52,895 nt of DNA from a virus (Duplodnaviria; Caudoviricetes). The stretch is taken from positions 1 through 52,895 of IMG/VR virus record IMGVR_UViG_3300032050_000187; one strand, written 5' to 3'. This document shows, piece after piece, positions 14,187-46,000 of the stretch. Both the position numbers and the translations under genes were made by a program. Below the pieces are notes generated by a model, which saw nothing but the letters and a program-made list of their open reading frames with translations, was not told the DNA's origin and made no database searches. Within the stretch, counting starts at the first letter, position 1, and every line of letters begins with the position of its first letter.

Positions 14187-15722
14187 TTAGTAATACGCCG
14201 CCTTGCGGCGGAAGTAGATGGGGTCGTCTTTCTCGTCGGTGTCCAAACTGATGAACCCGCCTTGGCGAAACCGCAGCAACGCTTGGGAGGTCGTGTCCAC
14301 GTAGTCGTCATTCTCACCGTTGGGGAAGGACGCCACCTCCTCGATGACCTCCCTGGCCCAGCGTGTGTCTGGTGCCCAGACTGTACCTGAACTAAACAAG
14401 TCTGCAACGGCGTTCAGACGCACAACTTTGTCATTGCCCCTGGAGGGATTGGTCTCTTGCACAGGTATGCCCATCCTGCGCAGCTCTTGTATCAACGGCG
14501 CTCCTGCGGCCTTCTTCTCCACGATAAACGCGTCTGGCTCCCACTCGTTGTAGTGCTTAAGCGCCGTGGCCTTCAGCTCGGGGAACTGCATCCTGTCTTT
14601 GAACGCATCCAGCAGTATGACCTGCGCGGCATCGTGCTCTTCCTCGTTGTAGAACACCCCCCAGGTTGTGCACGCCGAATAGTCCGCGCTGGTCTTGGCT
14701 TCAAACGCCGTGTCCCAGGACTGGATGATGTACTCACAGGCGGGTGGCTCTTCGCCCTCCCAGATGCGCCAATTTTTTCTGGAGATGATGGCCGCGTTGT
14801 CGCTGGTGGGCTGCTGCATGTACTGCGCGTTCCAATACTGGGGGTCGATCGACGCTTTGGCCGACTTCAACGCAGCCAGGGGCCACTGCTCTGGCCACAG
14901 GGACTTCTCGTCGTCCGTACCTTCGTTCAGTATGGCGGGTAGCTCCACGATCTCCCAGGGCGGCGCTTCGGGGTTTTTGGTCTGGTAGTCGATCAGCCGC
15001 CCGGTCAGGTCCAGTTTGCCCCAGCGGGTCATCACCACAATGATTCCGCCCCCTGGCATCAATCGCTGGAGTGGGCCAGTCTGGAACCAACTCCACGCCG
15101 TGTCAAACGCTAGACGACTGTTGGCTTTTACGTCTTGTTCCGAGTGAGGATCATCAATAACGAACAGATCGGCACCACGGCCAGCCAGAGCACCGCCGAC
15201 ACCAGCAGCGTAATACTGACCCCCAGCGCCAGTACCCCACTTTCCAGCAGCTTTTTGGTCATCGGCAACAACAGTTCGGGGGAAAAGCTCACGGTAGTCC
15301 TCGCTTGCGATCAAATTGCGGACCTTGCGGCCAAAGTCTTCTGACAAAGACGCGGTGTGCGTCCCCATGATGATCTTCTTATTAGGGTAATTACCTAGAA
15401 AGAAGGCTGGAAACAGATAAGAGCTGAATTCTGACTTGCCCATACGGGGGGCGATGTTGATGATGACCCGGTTTTTGCGCCCCTCGATCACATCGGTGAA
15501 GATTTTGGCCAGTTTCCTGTGGTGCGGACCCACTTTAAACCCTGGATAGACCCGTTTGGCAAAGGAAATCATATCCTGGCGGGCTGCGGCCACCCCGTAG
15601 CGCTTCTCACGCTCTTCGAGCATGTCAAAAAGCTCCATCTTCTCCTTGAGAGAAAGAGTCGGGAGCGCCTTTTGGATGGCGGCAACCTCAGTTGGAGAGA
15701 GCGTCAGGTCGTTGAGCTTCAT
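14187..15722 (-). CDS. terL: Terminase large subunit
   Basis: Walker A-like APRMGKS, Walker B LFVIDDPH, nuclease acidic motifs SWDTA and DDYVD. Confidence 0.93.
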   Translation of the reverse strand: MKLNDLTLSPTEVAAIQKALPTLSLKEKMELFDMLEEREKRYGVAAARQDMISFAKRVYPGFKVGPHHRKLAKIFTDVIEGRKNRVIINIAPRMGKSEFSSYLFPAFFLGNYPNKKIIMGTHTASLSEDFGRKVRNLIASEDYRELFPRTVVADDQKAAGKWGTGAGGQYYAAGVGGALAGRGADLFVIDDPHSEQDVKANSRLAFDTAWSWFQTGPLQRLMPGGGIIVVMTRWGKLDLTGRLIDYQTKNPEAPPWEIVELPAILNEGTDDEKSLWPEQWPLAALKSAKASIDPQYWNAQYMQQPTSDNAAIISRKNWRIWEGEEPPACEYIIQSWDTAFEAKTSADYSACTTWGVFYNEEEHDAAQVILLDAFKDRMQFPELKATALKHYNEWEPDAFIVEKKAAGAPLIQELRRMGIPVQETNPSRGNDKVVRLNAVADLFSSGTVWAPDTRWAREVIEEVASFPNGENDDYVDTTSQALLRFRQGGFISLDTDEKDDPIYFRRKAAYY

Positions 15723-16329
15723 CAGCCGCAGTTGTGGTGGATTCTTCTTGTGTGTGAGCGCTAACTTCTATGTCCTCGATTACGGATGCGTCGGTAACGC
15801 CCATGAACCTGTTGAGCTTGTCCTTGATCTTCTGGTCGATCTCGGTGTCAGACAGGTCAGCACGCTTGACCTCGATGCGTTCAGTGAACAGCCCGATCTC
15901 TGTGACCCGCCCGAGCATATCCAGCGCCTTGAGCCTGATCCGAGCGTCGGGGTGGTTTGTCTCCTCCAGTATCTTGGCCACAGCCATGCCGCGCAGCTCC
16001 TTGGCTTGCTCGACAAACTCCCAGTCGTAGGCCGAGAGCATGGTGACCAGATGGCGTACCGCCTCTGGCGTCTTGAGTTGGGTGAGTTGGTGTTTCGTTT
16101 CCGCAACAGGTTGTGCGGTGGCCAGCGCGGAGAACACTTTGCGTGCGGCGTTGGCCTGTGCTTGCTCGAGTACTTTCTGGTCGCTGTCAACCCCCATGCT
16201 CTCCAGCCACTCGGTGGTCTTGACCTGGGCGTTCAGGATTTCTTCAGGAGACGCCGCATCCAGCCCACGCACGGCTTTGCGTTCGTAGGAATCTACGGGG
16301 GGATGAAAATCTATTAAGTGATCCAGCAT
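15688..16329 (-). CDS. terS: Putative terminase small subunit
   Basis: 213 aa directly upstream of terL; RLKALDMLGR...LFTERIEV helix motif. Confidence 0.6.
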   Translation of the reverse strand: MLDHLIDFHPPVDSYERKAVRGLDAASPEEILNAQVKTTEWLESMGVDSDQKVLEQAQANAARKVFSALATAQPVAETKHQLTQLKTPEAVRHLVTMLSAYDWEFVEQAKELRGMAVAKILEETNHPDARIRLKALDMLGRVTEIGLFTERIEVKRADLSDTEIDQKIKDKLNRFMGVTDASVIEDIEVSAHTQEESTTTAADEAQRPDALSN

Positions 16330-16343
16330 ACGCGCATAAGCCC

Positions 16344-16372
16344 TTGAACCTGCGATGGGGCTAATGTACACT
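16344..16372 (+). promoter_or_regulatory. Sigma70-like promoter for candidate sRNA
   Basis: TTGAAC-17 nt-TACACT. Confidence 0.6.
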
Positions 16373-16392
16373 CAATCCCGGTAGATGTGCAA
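16363..16392 (-). promoter_or_regulatory. Sigma70-like promoter for the late operon (overlaps the opposite-strand promoter)
   Basis: TTGCAC-18 nt-TACATT about 35 nt upstream of the terS start. Confidence 0.55.
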
Positions 16393-16508
16393 GCAGTTGC
16401 CAGTTGGCCTACGGCCAATCAGCAAAAATGCTCATTTGCTTCTCCTCCGGGGGTTTGTGATTATCCCCCCTCTTCATCCCCTGACTGGCAACGGTCAGGG
16501 GACTTTTT
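16379..16508 (+). ncRNA. Candidate trans-acting small RNA with anti-RBS seed
   Basis: Promoter upstream, strand-specific terminator downstream, no credible ORF; seed 16431-16448 complementary to repeated early-gene initiation regions. Confidence 0.65.
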
Positions 16509-16514
16509 CGTTTT
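16477..16514 (+). terminator. Intrinsic terminator
   Basis: UCCCCUGACUG-GCAA-CGGUCAGGGGA (11 bp, one U-G pair, GNRA loop) followed by CUUUUUCGUUUU. Confidence 0.8.
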
Positions 16515-16765
16515 GGGGGGTGTTGGCTGGTAGTTCCCCTTTTCCACTTGCGTGTGCCTACACGGCTCCTCATTTAAACCAAGCCTCTCTATTGGTCACC
16601 AACACGGCTGGGGACTGACAAGCCAGTTTCCGTTCCGGCAATCTCTCGATTTGTCTCAATCCCCATGCGTGATGGCTCCGGGTCGCCTTCCCCCAGATAC
16701 TTGGTCCCGAGTCCCACGGGCTTGGCCTACTCCACTACGAATAGTTACAGACCTCCGACCAGCGC

Positions 16766-16793
16766 AGTATACCACCTGTCAATCGTTGGACAA
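16766..16793 (-). promoter_or_regulatory. Leftward promoter with overlapping TGTC-N8-GACA operator
   Basis: TTGTCC-16-TATACT with extended -10 TGn; TGTCCAACGATTGACA at 16777-16792. Confidence 0.55.
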
Positions 16794-16992
16794 GTGTTTT
16801 GTGGAATTTTTTAAAAAATTTATGGGGGTAGTGAAAAGGATTACAGGAAATTGGGATTATGGCTGGGGAACAGTGTTCATACATGGGCGGGGCTGTGCTG
16901 CCTATAAGGGTTGGTGGGGGTAGGGTGGGGTCTAAAGGTTTCAGTTATTGGGCCGCTTCGCCCTGCTCTGAGAGCTATCGTTCTACCCCTCG

Positions 16993-18461: not shown

Positions 18462-19190
18462 ATGTTTGAAAACAAAAACACCCGCCTTGTGCGACTACCC
18501 CCGCGCCTGTTGTTGGCCGAAGCCAACCGCCTGACCAAAGGGGTGCCGTACCTGCAAGGCACGCTATTTAACGCAGTAATGCAGAAGAAGAAACTGGCCC
18601 GCAGTCAACGCAACAAGAAGGCAGCACACGCCCGCTTGTGGAAACCCATCATCAACACCGCTAAATACGAGCGCCGAAATGTGCGCGTGATGCACGATTA
18701 CCAAGCCCGCTTGCCCGAACCGACCCCTCGCCTTGAAGCATTGGGTTTGTATCTGGTGGTACTGGATAAGGTAATCGAGCAACTCGAAGCGCACATTACC
18801 TTGGGGGAATACACGCCAGCGCAGTATGCAAAGGAACACAACCTGCCCAATGTGGGGGTGCACTGGTCTGACTGGGTGAAGGAATCCCACAAGCGCAACC
18901 TGACCGCAGTCTTTGCCGCACTCCCCCGAACAGGGCGCAAGAACAAGCACCCCTTTGCCCGCACAGTACCCAAGCCCATCTTCGAGAAGCAACACGCCCA
19001 ACTTGTCAAACGCACAACCAGCGACCTGGACAACGAGCGCAAGCGCTTGGCCGATGACCCGAACGACGGTAACTCATTCAAAAGAATAAAACAGATGATG
19101 CGGGTGCTGGCCGTGCTCAAAGATATGAAAGAACCCCAAGCCCTGCCCAACACATGGCATGGGCTGGCCCACCAGAAGGATGAGGAATAA
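18462..19190 (+). CDS. Basic hypothetical protein (242 aa)
   Basis: Long ORF with promoter and SD AAGG. Confidence 0.7.
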   Translation: MFENKNTRLVRLPPRLLLAEANRLTKGVPYLQGTLFNAVMQKKKLARSQRNKKAAHARLWKPIINTAKYERRNVRVMHDYQARLPEPTPRLEALGLYLVVLDKVIEQLEAHITLGEYTPAQYAKEHNLPNVGVHWSDWVKESHKRNLTAVFAALPRTGRKNKHPFARTVPKPIFEKQHAQLVKRTTSDLDNERKRLADDPNDGNSFKRIKQMMRVLAVLKDMKEPQALPNTWHGLAHQKDEE

Positions 19191-19218
19191 AACTTGCAGA
19201 CACGGTGTCTGCAAGTTT
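19190..19218. repeat. Palindrome AAACTTGCAGACA-CGG-TGTCTGCAAGTTT
   Basis: 13-bp perfect arms starting at the stop codon of the upstream gene. Confidence 0.85.
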
Positions 19219-19265
19219 CCGGTCTGCCGCCTGCCGACTCAGGCGGTACTTTAAGGAGAAGTGAG

Positions 19266-19502
19266 ATGAAGAACTATTGGTATTTGCGTATCGGCACCGA
19301 CACACTTGAGGAAGCCCAGCGCTTTTCTAAAAAGAGCGATGCGATTAACGCATACAAATGTGTGGCCAAAGAGTTGGCGTTTTATGGGCAGGCCATTGAC
19401 GCTTCGATTCACATTGCGCCCACTCGTGCCGAGGTCGTGGAGTATCCCGACTATGTGCTGTCGTTGAACGAAAACGGCAGAGTTGTAACTGAGCAAGCAT
19501 AA
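19266..19502 (+). CDS. Early hypothetical protein
   Basis: SD TAAGGAG, 78 aa. Confidence 0.7.
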   Translation: MKNYWYLRIGTDTLEEAQRFSKKSDAINAYKCVAKELAFYGQAIDASIHIAPTRAEVVEYPDYVLSLNENGRVVTEQA

Positions 19503-19513
19503 GGAGAAGAGAA

Positions 19514-19786
19514 ATGAAGATGCACAACATTTATTTTGTGGAAGTTACCGACACCTACGGAGGCGAAGCCAACTACTCGTGGGTCAAGCGGTTCAAAGTA
19601 CACGCCAACACCGAGCGAGGGGCCATGCGCAAGGTAGCCCGCCACATGGGGTATGGCGGCGGGACATCCCGAGACTGGGACACGGGCGACATAGCACGCT
19701 GGGTGTGGAAGCACGCCTGTGTCTGTGCGTTCGTGCAAGGGTACGAAGACCAAGCCGAGCACTTCATGTATGTCGAGTCAATTTAA
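19514..19786 (+). CDS. Early hypothetical protein (TDTYGGEANYSWV type)
   Basis: SD TAAGGAG; motif common in phage early regions. Confidence 0.7.
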   Translation: MKMHNIYFVEVTDTYGGEANYSWVKRFKVHANTERGAMRKVARHMGYGGGTSRDWDTGDIARWVWKHACVCAFVQGYEDQAEHFMYVESI

Positions 19787-19803
19787 ACCAAAGGAGAAAG
19801 CAA

Positions 19804-19947
19804 ATGAACGAAGTCAAAGCAACAACTGCCCAAGTGGTGTGGGAAATCCTCAACGCCGCACTGTATGACCTGACCAAAGGCAACCCAGCCGATGGCATCG
19901 CCGCCATTGAGGAAGCGATTCAACTGTTGGAAGGAGAAAGCAAATGA
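19804..19947 (+). CDS. Early hypothetical protein ending EGESK
   Basis: Flanked by AAGGAGAAAGCAAATGA repeats. Confidence 0.65.
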   Translation: MNEVKATTAQVVWEILNAALYDLTKGNPADGIAAIEEAIQLLEGESK

Positions 19948-20129
19948 ACCAAGGCACAAACGCCCCAACCAAACCCCAGTTCGAGGGGCAGATAGTCAAG
20001 TTCAAGTCACCCCATGCAGATGTGGTGCTGTACGACATAGCCAAGCGCAACGCCAAGTATGGCCACCTTGAGTGGTGGGCGCTGAACGACCCAACGAGTG
20101 AGCAGATAACCAAAGGAGAGCAAGCATGA
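19944..20129 (+). CDS. Early hypothetical protein
   Basis: ATGA-coupled, strong SD. Confidence 0.65.
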   Translation: MNQGTNAPTKPQFEGQIVKFKSPHADVVLYDIAKRNAKYGHLEWWALNDPTSEQITKGEQA

Positions 20130-20260
20130 CTGCAATGGAACTGTACGAACTGCTGAACAAAGCAGAGATTGATTACGAAATCATTGAGATATTCGAGGGT
20201 GCGCGGTTCATCCGCATCGAGGTAGAGGAAGAAGACACAACCGAAGGAGAAAGCAAATGA
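20126..20260 (+). CDS. Acidic 44-aa early protein ending EGESK (not in ORF track)
   Basis: MTAMELYELLNKAEIDYEIIEIFEGARFIRIEVEEEDTTEGESK; ATGA overlap at both ends. Confidence 0.65.
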   Translation: MTAMELYELLNKAEIDYEIIEIFEGARFIRIEVEEEDTTEGESK

Positions 20261-20532
20261 GTGCAATAGACCTGGACTACGCCATGCTGCACAAGGCAGC
20301 GCAACAGATGGAGAAGGAAGGCGGCAGCTTCGCCAAGCACATAGCACAAGCGTTCTATGTGGCAGACAGCACCAACATGGAGACGCTAGTGCGTGCGTTC
20401 GACAGCCTGTTCAGTGAGTACTACCGCAAGTACCGCAGAGCACAAATCATAAGCATCAGGGAAGACTACGAGAACGCATGCGACCGCCCGTACACAAGAG
20501 GAATGTTTACAAACGAAGGAGAAAGCAAATGA
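20257..20532 (+). CDS. Early hypothetical protein ending EGESK
   Basis: GGSFAKHIAQAFYVADSTN motif; coupled. Confidence 0.7.
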   Translation: MSAIDLDYAMLHKAAQQMEKEGGSFAKHIAQAFYVADSTNMETLVRAFDSLFSEYYRKYRRAQIISIREDYENACDRPYTRGMFTNEGESK

Positions 20533-20756
20533 GAGAACCACAACAACACTTCTACGCATCCAGCGTATCGCAGTGGGCAACGACCAACGACAAGCGCGAC
20601 CTGCGCCAGTTGTTGAGACTCATGGACAAGGACGGGTATCCCTACAACCTGTTCCTCGTGCCGCTGGATCACACCGCCAGCTACGACATCAAGATGTACC
20701 AACCCCAAGTCGAGGGCACACAGTGGCTTGGCTTTTTTGAACCAAAGGAGAAGTGA
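20529..20756 (+). CDS. Early hypothetical protein
   Basis: ATGA-coupled; YDIKMYQPQV motif. Confidence 0.65.
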   Translation: MREPQQHFYASSVSQWATTNDKRDLRQLLRLMDKDGYPYNLFLVPLDHTASYDIKMYQPQVEGTQWLGFFEPKEK

Positions 20757-21526: not shown

Positions 21527-21595
21527 ACACGAGTATGGGTTAGCGGTGTGCCCTCTCACACCGCGCTTTCAATTAGTAAAAACTGGAGAAGCAAA

Positions 21596-22930
21596 ATGAA
21601 ATTATTGTTTAGCACATTCATGATGGCCGCTGATGTTGTGTACTGCCACCGCGCATGGTTCAGGCGTGAGACCCGCAAGTACAAACTGCACCCTGTTGTT
21701 GAGGCCGCGCTCGATGTGTGCCGCCCTGATGACTGGCATCAGTTGTTGCTTGAGTGGCCGCACATATCCGAGGGTGACCCATCCCGCTTGGCATACACAC
21801 GAGACGAGCGTGCAGGCGAGGCCGACAGACAGACTGTCACGACCATCGGCAAGTATCTGTTCAGGCACTTCAGCGATATGCCCGACCACAAGATGCGTGA
21901 CTTGGCCGCGCTGTATGGCTCCAATGGCGAGTGCAGGTTCGTGCACACCATGGCTGAGATGCTGCACCACTTGAAGCGTGGGCCGTCATCTTGTATGACT
22001 GGCGACAGGGACTACCACTGTGTCGATGGCGTGTTGCGCCATGCCTATGAGGTGTATGACCCGAGCCTTGGCTGGCACATGGCCGTGCGCTTGGAGTTCG
22101 GCAAGACTGTGGGTCGTGCGCTGTGCTGTGGCAAGACCTATGTGCGCTCTTACAAGTACAACCCGAATGGAGGTGGCTCACCCACTGACGAGACGCTTGA
22201 AGCGTGGCTTGAGCAGCAGGGGTACGACAAGGAGTGCACATGGGGTGGCTTGAAGATCATGCACTACGAGACACGATGCGGCGACACACTGGCACCCTTC
22301 ATTGACGGCGAGGACAAGTACGCTACCAAGAAGGGCGACTACTTGGTCATCACGGATGACAGCGATGCCGAGTATCAGTGCGACAACACAGGCGGCACAG
22401 CCAGTGAGAACCGAGGCACACCATGCGAGGACTGCGGCGACCGCGTGGACGATGGCGATGGGTACTGGGTCGGCCCACACGAGGAGACGATGGTGTGCCA
22501 GAGTTGTTGCAACCACCACTACACATATGCGTACAGCAGGCGCAGGCATCAGGCGTACATCGGCAATGACTTTGTGGTGTATGTCGAGTCGCAAGACCAG
22601 CACTATGACGAGGACTATCTCGACGACAACGACATCGTGTTGCTTGAGAACGGCGACTACGAGCACACCGACAACGCTGTGGAGATTGACGGCGAGTGGT
22701 TCCACATCGAGGACGAGAACATTGTCTGTGACCACAACGGCGACTACCAACTGCTCAACAACTGCGTGAAGTTGGAGGACGGCGAGTACGCCCTGGCCGA
22801 GGAGGCGTGGCTGTGCGCCGGGTCTGCCGACTGGTACCTGAGCGATGATGTTGACCCTGTGGTTGTGGATGGCGAGACCTATCATCCCGACTATGCACCC
22901 GAGCAAGAAACCGAAGAAGAAGGAGAATGA
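21596..22930 (+). CDS. Cys-rich, highly acidic hypothetical protein coupled to M28 peptidase
   Basis: 444 aa; SSCM...GRAL...YVRSY...APFID core, CEDC and CQSC pairs, Asp/Glu-rich repeat tail. Confidence 0.75.
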   Translation: MKLLFSTFMMAADVVYCHRAWFRRETRKYKLHPVVEAALDVCRPDDWHQLLLEWPHISEGDPSRLAYTRDERAGEADRQTVTTIGKYLFRHFSDMPDHKMRDLAALYGSNGECRFVHTMAEMLHHLKRGPSSCMTGDRDYHCVDGVLRHAYEVYDPSLGWHMAVRLEFGKTVGRALCCGKTYVRSYKYNPNGGGSPTDETLEAWLEQQGYDKECTWGGLKIMHYETRCGDTLAPFIDGEDKYATKKGDYLVITDDSDAEYQCDNTGGTASENRGTPCEDCGDRVDDGDGYWVGPHEETMVCQSCCNHHYTYAYSRRRHQAYIGNDFVVYVESQDQHYDEDYLDDNDIVLLENGDYEHTDNAVEIDGEWFHIEDENIVCDHNGDYQLLNNCVKLEDGEYALAEEAWLCAGSADWYLSDDVDPVVVDGETYHPDYAPEQETEEEGE

Positions 22931-33052: not shown

Positions 33053-33064
33053 ACCGAGAAGCAA

Positions 33065-34624
33065 ATGGAAATCATAGACAACAAAGCACTGCTGTTCACT
33101 ACCCGCAACCCCAACAAATACTGCATCATCCCAAAGCACAAAGTCATGCCCCGCACAGATGGCGGCTTTGATGTTGCAGTCTACTGGGGGTTGGACGAGG
33201 CGCGTGTGTTGAAGAACCTTGGTGTCAAAGACGTACCCTCGCCCATTGTGAGGAAGTACCCCTGGCCTGGGCGCTACAAACCCATGGCCCACCAAGTCGA
33301 GACCGCTGCCTTCCTGACACTCAACCGCCGTGCATTTGTGTTCTCGGAACCCGGCACAGGCAAGACGCTATCGGCACTGTGGGCAGCGGACTACTTGATG
33401 CAGCGCGGTGAAGTGCGCCGTGTGTTGATACTGTGCCCCCTGTCGATCATGCAGTCAGCGTGGGTGGGAGACATCAGCAACAGCATCATCCACCGCTCGG
33501 CCATAGTTGCGCACCACCCTCAAGCTAGCCGCCGCATTGAGATGCTTCAGCAGAACTACGAGATCGTCATCACTAACTACGAAGGGCTAAACCTGATAGC
33601 CGATGAGATCAACGCCAACGGCAAGTTCGATCTGGTCATTGTCGATGAGGCCAACGCATACAAGACGGCCACCACACGGCGCTGGAAGGCGCTGGCATCC
33701 ATCATCAAGCCCAACACCTTTCTGTGGATGATGACAGGCACGCCTGCATCGCAGTCGCCTGTCGATGCCTATGGTCTGGCCAAGCTGGTCAACCCGGACG
33801 GTGTGCCCAAGTTCTTCACAGCATGGCGCGACAAGGTGATGAACAAAGTGACCATGTTTAAGTGGGCACCCAAGGCAGATGCTAAGGACACCGTGCATGA
33901 GGCGCTACAGCCCGCCATTCGCTTCACCAAAGAGCAGTGCTTGGACTTGCCCCCTGTCGTGACAACCACACGCGAAGTGCCGCTGACCCCACAGCAGGCC
34001 AAGTACTACAACATGCTCAAAGAGCGCATGGTGGTGCAAGCCGCAGGAGAAACGATCAGCGCGGTCAATGCTGCCGCTGGTGTGTCCAAGCTCTTGCAGA
34101 TCAGTTGCGGTGCGGCGTACACCGATGACAAGGAAGTGGTTGAGTTCGATGCTGCGCCCCGCCTGGGCGTGCTGGAAGAAATTCTGGAGGAGACCAGCCG
34201 CAAGGTGCTGATCTTCGCGCTGTTTCGCTCAAGCATTGACGGCATCCATACGCACCTGCTCAAGAAGGGCATCGCCGCTGAGTGCATCCATGGTGGCGTG
34301 ACGGCCAGCAAACGCGCTGACATCATCCGCCGCTTCCAAGATACGCCCGACCCCCGTGTGCTGGTCATGCAGCCCCAGGCTACAGCGCATGGCATTACCC
34401 TGACCGCTGCCGACACTGTGGTGTTCTACGGCCCGCTGATGAGCGTGGAGCAATACATCCAGTGCATAGCCCGTGCAGACCGCAAGGGGCAGAACTCAGA
34501 CAAGGTGACCGTCATCCACATCGAGGGTAGCCCCATCGAGAAGAAGATGTTCAAAGCCCTTGGCGGCAAAGTGAGCGACAACTCACTGCTGACCGACATG
34601 TTCACCCACGAAATTAAATCTTGA
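33065..34624 (+). CDS. SNF2-like SF2 helicase
   Basis: EPGTGKT, VDEAN, MTGTP, QCIARADRKGQ. Confidence 0.9.
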   Translation: MEIIDNKALLFTTRNPNKYCIIPKHKVMPRTDGGFDVAVYWGLDEARVLKNLGVKDVPSPIVRKYPWPGRYKPMAHQVETAAFLTLNRRAFVFSEPGTGKTLSALWAADYLMQRGEVRRVLILCPLSIMQSAWVGDISNSIIHRSAIVAHHPQASRRIEMLQQNYEIVITNYEGLNLIADEINANGKFDLVIVDEANAYKTATTRRWKALASIIKPNTFLWMMTGTPASQSPVDAYGLAKLVNPDGVPKFFTAWRDKVMNKVTMFKWAPKADAKDTVHEALQPAIRFTKEQCLDLPPVVTTTREVPLTPQQAKYYNMLKERMVVQAAGETISAVNAAAGVSKLLQISCGAAYTDDKEVVEFDAAPRLGVLEEILEETSRKVLIFALFRSSIDGIHTHLLKKGIAAECIHGGVTASKRADIIRRFQDTPDPRVLVMQPQATAHGITLTAADTVVFYGPLMSVEQYIQCIARADRKGQNSDKVTVIHIEGSPIEKKMFKALGGKVSDNSLLTDMFTHEIKS

Positions 34625-34673: not shown

Positions 34674-34692
34674 AAACAAAAAGGAGAAGTAG

Positions 34693-35097
34693 ATGAGTGA
34701 TGAAGCAGTACCCCTCGACAAATTGGCGAAGGTCTACCGCAAGATTCGTGACCGCATCGCTGTGCTGACACAGGAGTACGACACCCAAGTCGAACAACTG
34801 AAGGCGCAGCAAGATGAGGTCAAGAACGCAATGAAAGAGCACCTCAAGGCGCTCGGCGCAAGCTCAGTCAACACGCCGCAAGGCACAGTGATTATGGGCA
34901 CCAAGACACGGTATTCGACAGACGACTGGGATTCGTTCAAGGAGTTTGTCAAGACCGAAGACGCTCTCGACTTGTTCGAGCGGCGCATCCATCAAGGCAA
35001 CATGAAACTGTTCCTTGAAGACAACCCCGGCAAGCTCCCGCCTGGACTCAACTCCATGCAAGAGTACGACATTTCCGTTCGCAAGCCTTCCAAGTAA
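34693..35097 (+). CDS. Conserved replication-module protein (coiled coil, loosely Gam-like)
   Basis: N-terminal coiled coil; DWDSFKEFV...LFERRI...LPPGL. Confidence 0.65.
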   Translation: MSDEAVPLDKLAKVYRKIRDRIAVLTQEYDTQVEQLKAQQDEVKNAMKEHLKALGASSVNTPQGTVIMGTKTRYSTDDWDSFKEFVKTEDALDLFERRIHQGNMKLFLEDNPGKLPPGLNSMQEYDISVRKPSK

Positions 35098-39918: not shown

Positions 39919-40093
39919 GAGGGGGCAGGGGTTCTTTGTCCCCTGCCTCGATGTGGAACGCACCCGCGAGGAAGGGCTGCGCGAAGCGGTTAAGTGCAGA
40001 TTGAAGGATGCCCGCGCTGTGGTTGGCATCCACCGGGGTTTGATCGGCGTTGTGTTCAGCCGAGGTAACCTCGGGCACTCTCCGCCAGCTTGA
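39887..40093 (+). CDS. Small hypothetical protein
   Basis: YPWQQLERGQGFFVP motif; last rightward gene. Confidence 0.55.
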   Translation: MTIHYPWQQLERGQGFFVPCLDVERTREEGLREAVKCRLKDARAVVGIHRGLIGVVFSRGNLGHSPPA

Positions 40094-43000
40094 TGCGCAG
40101 TTGCTGCAACTTGTCCAGCTCTTCGCGCTTCTTGTCTGGTGTCAGGTTAGACGCTTTGATGGCGTTCATGGCCTTCGTGATGGTGCTCAACTGCTCTTGG
40201 ATGTTGCCCGCCACAGCCCCAGCAGCAATCTCTTTGGAGTTCTTTTGCAAGAACTCTCGGGCCTCAGACATGCGCCCGTCCTTGACCATATCCTTGAACG
40301 TCTTGTCGATCTGCTGAACTTCCTGCATGCGGTCGTATGTGGCACTCACAATACCAGCGGCATCGTTGGGCTGGAACATGGAGCCGATCACAGGCGTATC
40401 GGACAACCGCTTGGTAGCCTGCTCTGGCGTGCCCTTGGGCGGTGAGGGCATGGCAAAGTTTAAGGACTGCGCCAACGCAAGGCCCATTGTCCCGGTGTAA
40501 CCGCGAACCAAGTTTTCAATCTTGAGCGGGGATGTGCCTGTCAGCATACCAATTTGCTTGGCTACTTCAGAAGTGTTGTCGCGGAAGCGGTACTCAGGCA
40601 ACATCTGTTGCTCGGCCCTGGACTCGAGTGGGCGCTCGGTAAAGAACGAGTAGTTGGCCACGTTCTCAATGATGGGCTTGGCCAAGGCAGGCATCAGCAA
40701 GGATGTGCCGCCAGGGATGGTCTGTATGGCGATGCTCTTGAACGCTTTATACGCTTCTTCTGCGCCGCGCTCATTGGCCATGCTGTTGACCAGCGCCTCT
40801 GGGATGCCCTTAAAGATGTAACCAATCTCAAACGGCACCGGGATGCGCAATGGCTCATCCAAGCCTGGGATGCGCACAAAGAAGTTGCCGTACTTTTGCT
40901 CGGGCGTGGCGTTTTTGTACGCTTCATCGTCTTGCATCAGCATGGCGTAGGCTATCGCCGTGCCAGACAAAAGCGCTCCTCGGCGCAGCAACTTGCCCTG
41001 GATGTCCAGGCGCTCGTTCAATGGCATCTTGCCTGTCAAAGCGCGGTAGAGCACATCCAAACTCTGCACCTGTGCGTTGAAGAATGGGATGGCCGTGGAC
41101 AAGAACCGTGCCGATGGTGACAGCCCCTTGCGGTTGAAGTTCATGGATTCCAACGACATGAGCGTGGCTTCCATCTCCGACAAGCCCTGGTTGATGTAGG
41201 AGTTGTACTGGGCGCGGCGGGTTGCCGCGTCTGCCTCCATTGCAATACCTTCGGCACGGGCCACCAGTTGGCTCAAGCCCAGCTTGCCGTCTTGGAAATC
41301 TTTGAGGATGCGGGTCAGGTCTTCGTTGGTGCCCGTGAACACTTGCCCACCCGTGATACCCCTGGCTTCCAGCTTCTCTTTGGTGGCCGAACCGCCCAAC
41401 TGACGGATAGCGCCCATGATTGGGGTGAAGTTTGCGCCAGACAGTATGGGCGCAGCCACTGAGTCGCGGAACAACTGCCTGACTGGGTACAACGGACTGA
41501 GCATGACACCCTTGCGCACCATCGTGGCTGCGTAGCCCATGGCCCGGACAATTGCAGAGTTGTTGACGGGGATACCCGCCATGCCCTTGACCAGCAAATC
41601 CGCTGGGATACCTGTCTTGTCGGTCTCCACCAGCACGTACTTGTCTTCGCCCTTGAGTTTGAAGCTGACCACATCAGGGCCAGAAGTCGGGCTGATGAAG
41701 CGCCCCAAGCCCATGTCCACCAGATCAATCATGGTGTTTTTGGTAGCTTGGTTGCGCAGCGCAGCGTCCAGCAGCACCGATGTGTTCTGCACAGAACTGG
41801 TCAGGAAGTCGTAGATTTTCTGGTCGCCGCCAATCAACTGCTGCAACTGGGGCTGGTCTTTCAGGTTGCCCACCTTGAACGTGCCCTCGCCGCCAATCAC
41901 CAGTTCAGCGTTGCCGTTGCGCTCTCGGTAGTACGGGATGTAGTCGTTGGTTGCGGCCAGACGCTTGGCTTCCTCTGGGGAGAGAGCGCCTGTGTCTTCC
42001 ATGAACTTCATCAAGGAGCGGTTGTACTCGTTGTACTGCTTACGCGCCTTTTCAAACACGGCCTTGACTTCCGGATTGCTGTCGATCTGGCTTGCCGCAC
42101 GCTGGATTTGCTCTTTGGAGATGCCGTAGTTGAGCTTGTCGTAGCCCACGTTGGGGTTCTCTGCGCGTTTGTTGGCCAGATACAGCGTGAACAAGCGGTT
42201 GGCTGCTTCGGCATTCATGCCAGGAGCGCCCTTGAGGGTCTCGACAACGCCTGCCAGATTCGGTCCTTCCACGCTTTCAATGAGCTTTTCAATCTGCCCA
42301 TCAGCCCGCTTGTGGTCAACCAACTGGGGCACACCACGGGCCACCGACTGCTGCACAAACGACATCTTCTGGTCGGCCATGCGCAGGTAGTACATCATGC
42401 GCGTACCCTTGAATGGGTCGGCCATCTCACGGGCAATCTTCTCCAGCGGAGCCAAACGGTCAAGCCATTGTGTGCGCCCAGCCAACCCCAGGTTGGACTG
42501 TATCTGCTGCCCGATGCTCTTAGGTTTGGCAATCAGTTGGTCGGTTGTGGCCAACGCGTCTTCAAAGCCGGGAGCCTTGGCGGTGCGGTACGTGGCTTCG
42601 CCTGTGGCAGCTTCGCCGCCTAATGCTCCCACACCTTCTTGCACATACTTCCGAGCGTTGGCCACGATCTGGCGTACCTCGTTGTCAGTAACGCCTTTGA
42701 CACCAAATGTGTTGCTGAACCACTGCTTGATGGTTTCAAACAAACGACGCAACGCACTGCGACTGTCTGCGGTAGGTTCGGCACCTGTCTCGGCCATGTC
42801 GGCCAGCACTTCCTCAACGGCCACTTCGCGGGACAAATTCTTGTTGGCCCCCATCTTGGCATCAGCTTCACGGCGCACCGTGACGTTGCCGTCGTACAAA
42901 GAGTTCATGGTCTTGGCGTATGTACCGCCAAGCATCTCGCGCAGGCCGAAGTGGCCAGCCACTTCGTGCGCAATCGTCAAACCAACGTCATTGCCTGTGT

Positions 43001-46000
43001 GCAAGTTGGATGCCACTAAATACACGGTCTTGGTGTTGGGGTCGTACACGCCGGGGATGCGCCCAGTAACGCCGTCCTTGGCGGCTTGGTCTTGAATTCG
43101 CTGTGGCAGCTCCGACTCGTTCTCAACAACACTGACTTCAGGCGTAATGGCCCAGTCACTTAAGATGCGGTCAACCAAGCGCTTGACTTGTTGCGACTGC
43201 ATGCCGGGGCCAGCCTGGATGGAAGTGCGGAACACGCCCTTGCGTTCTGCTTTAAGTTCCAAGTTTTCTTCAGCTTCTTTGGCCTTGGTGTATGTCAGCG
43301 TAGCGGCTTTGGCTGCGCCTGTCACCTTGGATTGCCGTTGCCGCAAAGCACTGAGCGTGCCTTTGAGCGTGGCTTCTTTGGCTTCCAAGTCTTTCATCAA
43401 CGGCGTGAGTTTGCCCTTGACCTTGGCTTTGCCTGTACTGCGCAGGAACTGCATGCGCCGTTGAACGTCTGCCAAATCTGTGTTGACCTTCATCAAACGG
43501 TTGGTCACCGCAACGCCAACTTCTTCCAACGACACCTGTGGGCGTGGCTGTGTAACGCGAGACCCCAAAACTTCTTTTACCAGCGACGCTTGCTTAACAG
43601 GCTTGAGCTTGGGGGCTTTCTCGCCTTTGGCTTTGCGCCGCCTTGCGGCCACCACGGCTTCTGCCGCAGCGCGTCTGTCTTCGGTGTCTCTGCGTGCTTC
43701 TTCATCTTCCCGCGTCCGCAATTCAGTCTTGACCAACGGCGCGTTCTGGAACACGTTTTCCAGTTTGCTTTCTTGATCGGCAATCTTTTGCCGCAGCTCT
43801 GCCTTGGTGTCTTCGTTTGTGGCCTTGTCCAGTTGATCGTTCAAGCTGCCAATAGCGCGGCGAATCTTGGACATCTCCTGGCGCATCTGCGTGGTGTCTT
43901 TCTCCAACCGCACGCCTTCCAGCCCCAGTCCCTCACGCCCACGCTGCGCAGCTTGGCGCAACCGGGTTTCTTCTGCCGTGGCTTCTTGTTCGGCTCTGCG
44001 CTTTTCAGCTTCTGCCCCGGCCTTCTCAACACGTTCAGCCTCACGCTTTTCTTGCGTAACCTTATCCAGCTCAGCTTTGGCTTCGTCCGCTTCTACCTGG
44101 GCCTTCTCAAACTCTTTAAGTGCGGGCTGAGCAATATCGGTGTACGCTTTAATCTCTGCGCCAATCTGTGCCGCCAAATCTTCCAGCGGAGTAACAACGG
44201 CTTCTAGGTCAGCTAGTTTTTTACGCAGTGCAGGTTCTTGCGCCAACAGGTTGTTGATCTTCAACAACGTGCGCATGTCTGACGGCTCTTGCAAAACTGC
44301 CGCTTTTACGTCATCAATTTCCCGCAACGCTTGCTGCAAAGGAACAATGTGTTCGTTGCGTGCATCTTGGGCTTCTTGACGAACCGCTTCCAGATCGGAG
44401 CGCATCTCGTCTTTCCAACCCAACGCCAGAGCGCCTGTTTCCCGCGCCTTCTTGACCTGCTTGTCGTGCTTGGTTTTGGCGGCGTTGTATCGGTTTGTGA
44501 TGGTTGGCAGCGCTTTACCAACGGACTGCAATGCGGCCAAGTTGTCTGCGCGTTGTTTTTGAATGGCATCGCGCATGCCCTGAACGTCTTTGGAGTCCAG
44601 CAGCTTTTGAAAATTCGACGGCGTGGCACGCGCCACTTGTGCCCCGGCTTCGGGGAACATCTCAAGCTGTGGCTGGGCTTCTGTGTTCTTTGTGCGGGTC
44701 TTGCCTTCTAAGTCAGTGAAGGTTAACTTCTCACCCCTGGCAACCGCAGCGGTCTCTTCTTTTGACAACGGCGCTGCCGCGCTGCGTCCCGACACTTCCT
44801 GCGCCTTGAGCATCTCGCCCAGGTCACGCACAGCAAACGGGTTGGGCAGGTTGCCTTCGGCCACCATGGTGGCTTGCTCCCGTGCCAAGGAGATGAACTC
44901 GGGGTCGTTGGTGGTCTCCAACGCATCCCGCAACCGGGTCAACAAATCAACGGTGGCAGCGTCTGCTTTGGTTGGAGTGCCTGTTGCAAGAAAGCCAGGG
45001 TTGGTGTTGCCCGACACTTTGGCAGCTGCTAATATTTTGGCCAAGTCCGCCAGAGTGTTTGCTTCTTGTTTCTCTAAAACAGGTGCCGCACGGGTGCGCG
45101 TCTCGGCACTGCGCAACACCATCTCAATCACATTCAACGCACGTTGCTTCTCAGTCTTGGCTTCGCGTGGTTCTCCGCGCAGCGTCAGCTCATCAGGCGC
45201 AGCAATCCGTGGCCCCGCACCGCTGGGCTTCTTGGTCTTGCCTTCAAGATCGACTTGGCCCTGCTCTAACATCCGCGTAGCGGCATTTTGCAAGTTCTGG
45301 TAGACGGCATCCCGTGTTTGACCTTGCAGCACTTTGACGGCTTGGGCTGGCGCACCAAATGTGCCGTAGCGGCTTTCCAACTCATTGAGCGCTTCCAAAG
45401 AACGGGCACGGGCTTCGGCCTTTTCCCAGTCGGCCATCTCAGGCAAACCAAACGCTTTGCGTCGCGCTTCAATCTCGGCGGCATGCGCAACTACAAAGGC
45501 TTCTTTGGCTGCGCTGATCTGTGCTTCACGTTTGGCAGGCAAAACCAGTTTGCCAGTGCGTGCCGTATCCAGTGTCTTAATCAGCCCAAGCAACTGTATG
45601 CGCTGGGTGTCAGCATGCTGATCGGCAGCGGCTTCTTGTGCCCGCTCTTCAGGCAGCATGCCTTCTTGTAATTCACGCGTAAGTTTTCCACGACCTTCCA
45701 CAGCCCCTTGCTCTTTGGCTGTGCGCATCTCCGTGAGCAACGCTTCTTGCGTTTTACGGTCCCTTGTGATGCGTGCAATCTGAAATTGCGTCTGCAAGTC
45801 TTTAAGGTTCTGGGATGGCGATGCGCCAACACCTTCAACAACCCGCCCAGGGGTAATGCGCCCATTGGTCAACGGCAGCGTCTGAATTAACTGGTCAACC
45901 AGGGGCATTTCTTCTGGTTTCTCGGGCGTCTCAATGATTTCCTGCTGCTTCGACGGGAACCGCTCAGACAGCAGCTTTCCAGTATCACTGGCATAACCAC

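Follow-up and report, generated by a model that had tools for sequence, protein, structure and literature searches.

The locus

The DNA examined here is the IMG/VR virus record IMGVR_UViG_3300032050_000187 (52,895 bases, estimated completeness 83%), called the window throughout. It holds a predicted small RNA (sRNA) unit that sits in the gap between two gene blocks. The structural and packaging genes lie on the minus strand, between the left end and about 16,330 (terL at 14187..15722, portal, major head), and the replication genes occupy the plus strand from about 17,000 to 39,900 (DNA polymerase, helicase, primase-helicase). The predicted RNA is complementary to the translation start of the helicase gene, and this match is the main subject of the present work. 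A sequence-only reading of the window had proposed such an RNA as the silencer of a regulon of early genes. No lysogeny genes were seen in the annotated parts of the window, a tRNA search of the window found none, and no DNA similarity of the window to sequenced phages was found. By terL, the nearest cultured phages (47-53% identity) are 023Pt_psg01, DSL-LC04, HTVC027P and HTVC023P.

The locus comprises the following features, the two sets of promoter hexamers being readings of the sequence.

16344..16372, plus strand: promoter-like hexamers of the sRNA, TTGAAC (16344-16349) and TACACT (16367-16372), 17 nt apart
16363..16392, minus strand: promoter-like hexamers of the late operon, directed toward terS, TTGCAC (16392-16387) and TACATT (16368-16363), 18 nt apart
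16380..16514, plus strand: predicted small RNA of ~135 nt, its 5′ end placed from the -10 hexamer and its 3′ end from the U tract
16380..16440, plus strand: P1, the 5′ stem-loop domain, with a G-U-rich outer helix (16380-16387 with 16433-16440)
16436..16445, plus strand: UUGCUUCUCC, core of the pairing segment, each position kept in 48-53 of 53 unique copies
16441..16448, plus strand: UCUCCUCC, the exposed single-stranded anti-Shine-Dalgarno (anti-SD) stretch separating P1 from P2, free of pairing in 51-53 of 53 folds
16449..16470, plus strand: P2, a hairpin found by folding, GGGGG ... CCCCC
16477..16514, plus strand only: P3, the intrinsic terminator (GCAA loop, a single U-G pair, U tract)
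16409..16435, minus strand: an eight-codon frame behind a Shine-Dalgarno (SD) sequence and ATG; not conserved, its length and sequence differing in every clade
15688..16329, minus strand: the terS-position gene (213 aa, without family match), first gene of the late operon and marker for gathering relatives

The promoter that the sequence-only reading had described (TTGAAC-17-TACACT, 16344-16372) was present on the plus strand. For the overlapping, opposite-facing promoter (16363-16392), TTGCAC and TACATT were found 18 nt apart. The two -10 hexamers overlap by 2 bp within the palindrome-like AATGTACACT. In 46 of 51 unique relatives, TAYACT is preceded at 17-18 nt by a TTGnnn -35 hexamer, and the block CTGCTTGCAC ... 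GTGTACAYT is kept upstream of terS among relatives.

A terminator working on the plus strand only (16477-16514) had also been claimed, and a terminator scan bore this out. The stem (16477-16502) has 11 pairs, a GCAA loop and a U-G pair, and is followed by CTTTTTCGTTTT; on the opposite strand, an A run precedes the hairpin and no U tract comes after it. The claim that the unit holds no credible gene agrees with our result, since we found no credible open reading frame (ORF) in it, and the plus-strand frames at 16385..16618 and 16387..16533 read through the terminator. As a candidate for an independent transcription unit, the element has a clear terminator, weak but conserved promoter hexamers and no conserved ORF.

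Folding of the plus strand (16379-16514) gave a minimum free energy of -57.6 kcal/mol (z = -5.68). The RNA of the window folds into a long P1, the eight free bases UCUCCUCC, P2 and P3. The stem-loop, hairpin and terminator of the original layout were thus recovered. The proposed seed (CTCATTTGCTTCTCCTCC, 16431-16448) had to be revised: half of it is paired in P1 and UCUCCUCC alone is free, with an opening energy of 0.06 kcal/mol.

Conservation of the RNA

Related loci were gathered through the terS-position protein, the gene of which has the conserved start ATG CTG GAT CAC. We collected 80 of 281 IMG/VR relatives (identity 59-97%). At least 200 nt upstream of terS were available for 75 loci, which reduced to 52 unique sequences and, with the window, gave 53 copies. 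The MAFFT alignments aligned P1 and P3 in part and P2 never. The structure statistics were taken from per-sequence folds, which cannot yield column-wise covariation for P2 and P3.

The core word and the T run were found in all 75 loci, and the same architecture with altered words was present in four of four more distant genomes (terS 51-55% identical). The three-domain fold (P1, exposed UCUCCU, P2, terminator) was obtained for 50 of the 53 unique copies. Among these copies, P2 has 34 distinct sequences and P3 has 37, all of them hairpins. The plus-strand fold was more stable than the minus-strand fold in 52/52 copies, by a mean of 9.5 kcal/mol. G-U pairs accounted for 269 of 1635 pairs in the plus-strand folds versus 69 of 1449 in the minus-strand folds. 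Many terminator loops are of the GNRA type on the plus strand, and the U tract occurs on that strand only.

The stretch UUGCUUCUCCU is 85-100% conserved (45-53 of 53 copies per position), while P2 and P3 drift. CAUUGCU, in the 3′ strand of P1, was paired in at least 46 of 53 copies, and UCUCCU was unpaired in 51-53. The bases opposite it in P1 differ among copies (A/G, U/C), whereas the 3′ strand is constant; at the G, there are 44 G-U, 8 G-C and 1 A-U pairs. Judged by this pattern, the 3′ strand is constrained by more than P1 pairing. RNAalifold recovered seven outer P1 pairs, and in the distant genomes the 5′ strand of P1 had changed together with the seed. The plus-strand segment 16380-16514 looks like a real noncoding RNA gene. 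In three of the nearest cultured phages, the word GGAGAAGCA was absent around terL, and for this reason the element may be confined to the uncultured clade.

NmsRb, the Betaproteobacteria toxic sRNA and anti-hemB are small RNAs with an anti-SD seed. A search of the whole window with Rfam 15 (52,895 bases, both strands) gave no match at gathering score. The sub-threshold matches to the sRNA region were all on the plus strand, and four of them were small RNAs with anti-SD seeds; the same searches also returned the unrelated PyrG leader, Spot 42, NsiR1 and asR3. RF02345 (ar15, AbcR) scored 21.0 bits (E 0.016) on 151 nt and 20.8 bits on 601 nt, with a gathering score of 40, and ten relatives gave no match to it at E up to 10. 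RF02278 (Betaproteobacteria toxic sRNA) and RF02837 (anti-hemB) scored 16.8 and 14.2 bits in the window (gathering 50 and 49.5); in L056 and L044, these two models gave 24.7, 20.6 and 19.3 bits, also below gathering. Membership in ar15, NmsRb (RF02877), RF02278 and RF02837 was rejected, as the scores lie far below the thresholds (21 vs 40; 14-25 vs 49.5-52). Phage antisense RNA families gave no match at gathering score in the window and none at E up to 10 in 16300-16900. By these model comparisons, the predicted sRNA is a new family.

Predicted pairing with the helicase start

Fifteen related records were fetched whole or in part for comparisons of seed and start regions. Gene starts came from a simple purpose-made caller, and genes were assigned as early or late by strand alone. 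Several helicase starts had been mis-called and were corrected; the corrected protein has 519-520 aa and begins with MEII/MHIL in all genomes. In the window, the gene and its start are as follows.

33065..34624, plus strand: SNF2-type helicase gene, the proposed primary target; 519 aa; PHROG phrog_62, DNA helicase; Pfam SNF2-rel_dom (8.5e-26) and Helicase_C (1.7e-16)
33056..33068, plus strand: helicase translation start GAGAAGCAAATGG, ATG at 33065, with a 13-pair contiguous match to sRNA 16432-16444

The helicase was the ortholog group with the strongest preference for its own seed. Its start was complementary to the conserved sRNA stretch in 13/13 genomes holding both, which represent eight lineages. 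Matching indels and substitutions were found on the seed and helicase-start sides in these eight lineages. The seed/start partners were:

Window and G011: CAUUUGCUUCUC/GAGAAGCAAAUG
G002 and G005: CAUUUGCUUCUC/GAGAAGCAAAUG, plus an upstream CAUCA matching the seed flank CUGAUG
G003: GCAUUGCUUCUC/GAGAAGCAAUGC
G006 and G014: GCAUUGCUCUC/GAGAGCAAUGC
G007: CUGUUGCUUCUC/GAGAAGCAAUGG, via two G-U pairs
G017 (and G016, with one G-U): AGAUGCUUCUCC/GGAGAAGCAUCU
G018 and G019: UGCUUUCUCC/GGAGAAAGCA

The longest contiguous match between own partners was 10-13 pairs in 12 of the 13 genomes and 7 pairs in G004. Averaged over the 13 genomes, the longest run was 11.2 pairs for own versus 7.9 for cross combinations, and none of 50,000 permutations reached the observed value. 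At the level of the eight lineages, the duplex energy was -20.8 kcal/mol for own and -15.0 kcal/mol for cross pairings. None of the other 40,320 permutations scored as well as the true assignment of seeds to helicases, and the own partner came first in 7/8 rows and 7/8 columns of the lineage matrix. Among all called starts, the helicase ranked 1, 1, 1, 2, 2, 4 and 5 in seven of nine genomes. Nearly all starts of 79 helicase loci on other contigs were (G)GAGAAGCA(A)ATG or near variants of it, and the GCGA variant of L128-131 would pair with a window-type seed via G-U. The flanks at the duplex ends were classified as well (10 G-U vs 13 A/C juxtapositions); they are mostly unrelated and therefore uninformative.

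The sRNA and the helicase start combine a conserved, accessible seed with changes that are mirrored in a distant target. Co-variation of seed and start had been named as a check by the sequence-only reading; for the helicase, one of the sites it listed, this co-variation is very strong. On the comparative evidence, the sRNA very probably targets the helicase start. The match and the co-change point to RNA-based control of phage replication genes.

An intein-like insert of ~840 nt splits the helicase of G007 (the record behind L040), in frame, after residue ~196. The insert occupies the oriented coordinates 19014-19858, and its translation starts with CFVAGT and ends near VYNLEV...NYFVG.

Predicted pairing with other start regions

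Three further sets of starts stood out in the window.

19792..20532, plus strand: starts of four small early ORFs (19792, 19932, 20245, 20517) with exact AGGAGAAAGCAAATGA; candidate secondary targets, with a one-base bulge each
34682..34697, plus strand: start of a 134-aa gene after the helicase (weak DUF7307 match, below the Pfam cut-off); the best-pairing start in the window
21585..21598, plus strand: start of a 444-aa early gene, GGAGAAGCAAAATG

The matches listed earlier from the sequence at 21585, 33055-33067, 34683, 36343 and the AGGAGAAAGCAAATGA and AGGAGAAGTGAGATGA positions were present. The window contains four exact copies of AGGAGAAAGCAAATGA versus 0.04 expected, with duplexes of -21.0 to -23.7 kcal/mol, and the word occurs six times in G002. 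AGGAGAAGTGAGATGA is found at 19254 and 20746, with 0 copies expected. The start at 34682-34697 formed a duplex of -25.1 kcal/mol, and its ortholog group showed an own-seed delta of -2.21 in nine genomes. For the 444-aa gene, the corresponding values were -19.9 kcal/mol and -2.09 (six genomes). Seed matches with at most two mismatches numbered 6 versus 1.46 expected, and 1 of 100 shuffles reached 6. The consecutive small early ORFs (19254-20746) open with identical 16-nt ribosome-binding site (RBS) cassettes, often after an AACC-like word.

The listed early sites paired at -15.5 to -25.1 kcal/mol versus -6.8 to -11.7 kcal/mol for six late starts. With the 19-nt seed, plus-strand starts of the window paired better than minus-strand starts (means of -12.3 vs -9.4 kcal/mol; Mann-Whitney p = 0.0036). 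The expected advantage of early genes was therefore seen in the window, but it did not extend over the six genomes compared: the contrast gave p = 0.98, 0.18, 0.0049, 0.076 and 0.061 in five relatives, and this lack of generality weakens its interpretation. The SD forms also differ between the classes. GGAG is followed by AA in 54 of 111 plus-strand starts versus 17 of 75 minus-strand starts (hand count, window and G001-G005), so early genes favour the seed-matching GGAGAA form; late (minus-strand) genes favour TAAGGAG(T)/AAGGA. When compared with 200 shuffles that kept CUCC, the real seed beat 97-100% of them for the early starts in 6/6 genomes. As it also beat 69-100% for the late starts, this control mostly detects resemblance to the RBS complement.

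After removal of row and column means, the own seed paired better with own early SD starts in 13 of 14 genomes (p = 0.00035); late starts gave p = 0.40 and 0.75 in the same test. With one genome per lineage, the early effect was found in 10/10 lineages (p = 0.00014). It persisted in 10/10 (p = 0.002) when the three best ortholog groups, the helicase and two others, were removed. Removal of the starts near the sRNA locus left the effect in 10/10 lineages, with p = 8e-5 for early SD starts versus 0.39 and 0.71 for late ones. Over the lineage-level tests, late starts gave p = 0.34-0.71. The proposed early-gene regulon is thus retained in part: co-variation is weak and significant for the early class and absent for the late class, and most of the pairing is generic. 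We regard a wider early regulon as plausible on these comparisons.

Two apparent targets were rejected. The terS ortholog group is an artefact, as some called terS starts fell inside the sRNA antisense region, and the terL 'start' at 15638 is internal to the gene.

Proposed mechanism

We lean toward the reading that the plus-strand segment 16380-16514 gives a trans-acting sRNA that pairs with the helicase start, with early small ORFs as secondary targets, and consider it somewhat more probable than not. The base-pairing RNA of ~135 nt would end at its own intrinsic terminator. It would be transcribed from a weak sigma-70-like promoter, placed back to back with the late (terS) promoter and having a common -10 region with it. 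The exposed UCUCCU may act as a toehold for GGAGA-type SD sequences. On true targets, pairing would extend into the 3′ strand of P1 (UUGC, CAU), displacing the weak, G-U-rich P1. In the energy balance, the opening of P1 costs 6-9 kcal/mol and the duplex yields -19 to -25 kcal/mol.

On the helicase mRNA (33056-33068), the duplex would cover the SD region, the spacer and the AUG, and would most probably block ribosome binding. The helicase start would be the conserved, co-evolving target. In the window phage, the starts of early small ORFs that resemble GGAGAA(A)GCAAAUG are likely to be secondary targets; for around a dozen early starts, the predicted pairing equals or exceeds that of the helicase. 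With the common -10 region, the sRNA and the late promoter might be controlled together, which would suit a late switch-off of the early and replication genes. We infer the transcription, the RNA ends, repression rather than activation, the timing and the regulon size.

Several observations weigh against this mechanism. The 5′ half of the seed (CAUUUGCU, 16433-16440) is paired as the 3′ strand of P1, and opening the anti-AUG half of the pairing segment out of P1 costs 6.1-8.8 kcal/mol. In the window itself, the helicase ranks only 14th of 87 called starts. The G004 helicase start pairs 5+7 with a mismatch and three G-U pairs (-15.1 kcal/mol, rank 25/101). The duplexes contain seven wobble pairs, spread over four lineages, which is thin G-U support, and the crude caller placed several starts wrongly (helicase, terL, terS). 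The sRNA promoter hexamers match the consensus at 4+4 of 12 positions, as do those of the late promoter, and a consensus scan listed neither; support for both promoters therefore comes from conservation, not from consensus strength.

The evidence for targets beyond the helicase meets further difficulties. The AGGAGAAAGCAAATGA cassette always needs a bulge and is absent from G005 despite the same seed. With anti-GGAGAA and anti-AUG fixed, UUGC ranked 17, 58, 12, 13, 25 and 65 of 256 in six genomes. With ranks of this order, most non-helicase pairing is generic SD plus AUG, and the spacer specificity is modest. Outside the helicase, the own-seed effect is small (mean 0.3-0.6 kcal/mol). As for expression, the run search gave only Logan contigs of 90-95% relatives from four runs, without strand or end information, and two of the four runs holding relatives are probably DNA.

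A more ambitious version of the mechanism has the sRNA arise from a two-way late-operon promoter and silence the helicase together with an early/replication set whose starts co-evolve with it, the G-U-rich P1 gating the pairing. We put this forward tentatively and would rather expect some part of it to fail. If true, the sRNA would be an RNA counterpart of T4 RegA/RegB, and the regulon would be the first co-evolving sRNA regulon described in a virulent phage.

Alternative explanations

The unit could act in cis on the late operon, by promoter competition with terS and/or as an antisense RNA to minus-strand read-through, with the helicase match being secondary. The 2-bp overlap of the -10 hexamers means that only one of the two promoters can be occupied at a time, and a minus-strand promoter-like TTGTCC-16-TATACT lies upstream at 16793..16766. 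In several relatives, terS-strand tRNA genes end just before the hairpin, which lacks a U tract on that strand, so read-through transcripts fully complementary to the sRNA are likely. Antisense pairs need no conservation, yet UUGCUUCUCCU is near-invariant while P2 and P3 drift. Interference alone requires neither P1 nor P2, and opposite the sRNA lies only the non-conserved eight-codon frame. Moreover, a cis role leaves the matching changes at the helicase start, 16.7 kb away, unexplained. We consider this explanation unlikely, although a cis role need not exclude trans pairing.

It is also conceivable, but quite unlikely in our view, that host mRNAs are the main targets and that the RNA is a generic anti-SD RNA for host take-over, the phage matches being by-products of strong RBSs. 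This would account for the exposed part being a generic anti-SD sequence and for most of the phage-start pairing, which SD plus AUG explains; PreS and VpdS, moreover, act on host mRNAs (PMC12197685). It does not lead one to expect the lineage-specific changes outside the anti-SD core that are mirrored in the phage helicase start, nor the own-versus-other specificity for phage early starts.

The conserved word might instead be a DNA site for a phage protein, present upstream of terS and at the helicase start and tracking the specificity of that protein. Two inverted copies of 10-13 bp that change together look alike at the DNA level, which also counts against the RNA mechanism, and one copy adjoins the promoter pair. 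The distance from the word to the terS -35 hexamer, however, varies between ~2 and 40 nt among relatives, and the second copy spans the SD, spacer and ATG, the region in which sRNA targets are found. The word is part of an RNA fold specific to one strand, and its partner strand in P1 changes with it; differences compatible with G-U pairing occur between the copies in G007, G016 and G004 (and, given a window-type seed, in L128-131). A DNA site is improbable on this evidence.

Finally, the minus-strand word GGAGGAGAAGCAAATG has a perfect SD, spacer and ATG and would be left unstructured in a minus-strand RNA lacking the plus-strand G-U pairs, but it is highly improbable that it is the RBS of a short late-operon leader frame with incidental plus-strand features, as the ATG is replaced by ACG in L079/L080 and by GTG in L054 and is missing from L040 and L038, the conserved terS promoter lies downstream of the frame, and the terminator, G-U pairs and GNRA loops are specific to the plus strand.

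Comparison with known systems

The trans-acting sRNA of the preferred reading was compared with bacterial and phage regulators. AbcR pairs with ribosome-binding sites and represses translation (PMC7143759). The window RNA shares with AbcR/alpha-r15 of the Rhizobiales and other CU-rich anti-SD sRNAs a length of ~100-130 nt, stem-loops, an unpaired CU-rich anti-SD stretch and a terminator. Over its full length it can be aligned to the ar15 model, and its elements follow in the order of that model. The resemblance is in design only. Unlike AbcR, the sRNA is phage-encoded, its pairing segment reaches the AUG and is half buried in P1, and its best target is the phage's own helicase.

P22 sar, P1/P7 c4 and lambda OOP are small phage RNAs that block start regions of phage mRNAs (PMC12197685). 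As presented in that review, sar and OOP are encoded in cis, and c4, an immunity RNA of temperate phages, is released by processing from the same operon. By contrast, the present sRNA lies 16.7 kb from its predicted target, a replication gene.

In T4, RegA is a translational repressor and RegB is a nuclease that cuts GGAG in early SD sites (PMC3014915). The model of the sequence-only reading follows the logic given for these factors in the same source: one factor shuts off many early mRNAs and the late mRNAs escape. RegA and RegB are proteins, whereas recognition here would be by RNA pairing, and only the helicase has strong comparative support.

Lambda PreS acts on host dnaN (bioRxiv 10.1101/2024.10.31.621285), and VP882 VpdS alters phage and host mRNA levels (PMC12197685). 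As characterized in these two sources, both resemble the predicted sRNA in being phage-encoded, trans-acting, base-pairing and tied to replication, but they belong to temperate phages and act chiefly on the host. Neither PreS nor VpdS showed sequence or model similarity to the sRNA. Among the examples considered from the review and the PreS preprint, no RNA is both trans-encoded in a virulent-type phage and matched by a co-evolving target within that phage's replication module. A prior description of such an sRNA in this phage group was not found in the literature searched.

Few phage-encoded sRNAs are understood so far, and those considered from the review are cis-antisense or from temperate phages and prophages, mostly with host or lysogeny targets (PMC12197685). 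The RNA gene described here is conserved in a large, abundant group of uncultured aquatic podophages, with 281 terS and more than 570 helicase relatives in IMG/VR. It has a specific, testable candidate target in the phage's own replication module, and natural variants of seed and target can already serve as compensatory mutants. If confirmed, the mechanism would place control of replication and early genes by RNA among the timing devices of lytic phages. The RNA would also provide a new family for the annotation of viral metagenomes and a natural system for sRNA-target co-evolution.

Neighbouring elements

Between the sRNA terminator and the early promoter region, the window carries a 257-nt stretch (16519-16777) that is missing in some close relatives, L002 and the L067-type among them; a contig from run X1 joins 16519 directly to 16777. 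Elsewhere among the relatives, this position is filled by terS-strand tRNA genes. In the window, the stretch contained no tRNA and no Rfam match, and its fold had a z-score of -1.84. In several relatives, among them L017 (357-428 and 459-540) and L040 (2782-2854), such tRNA genes immediately precede the sRNA terminator on the terS strand, and their transcripts would run antisense across the sRNA gene.

A 160-nt contig from run X2, which is labelled RNA-Seq and is probably DNA, spans 16359-16518 at twice the depth of its neighbours. It was dropped as transcript evidence, as its right end is a strain-variable insertion boundary.

Farther along, a 2539-aa ORF occupies 40056-47675 on the minus strand. 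It has PHROG matches in its C-terminal third only (phrog_9854 and phrog_18222, both of unknown function).

At 16760-16830, the window contains a conserved palindrome of the type TGTCAA-N4-TTGACA / TGTCTAAC-N-TAGACA, beside the AT-rich block TTTTATAAAA. Such a palindrome also occurs ~20-60 nt past the sRNA terminator in L010, L013, L024, L051 and G002-G005. Together, the palindrome and the AT-rich block look like an early promoter with an operator.

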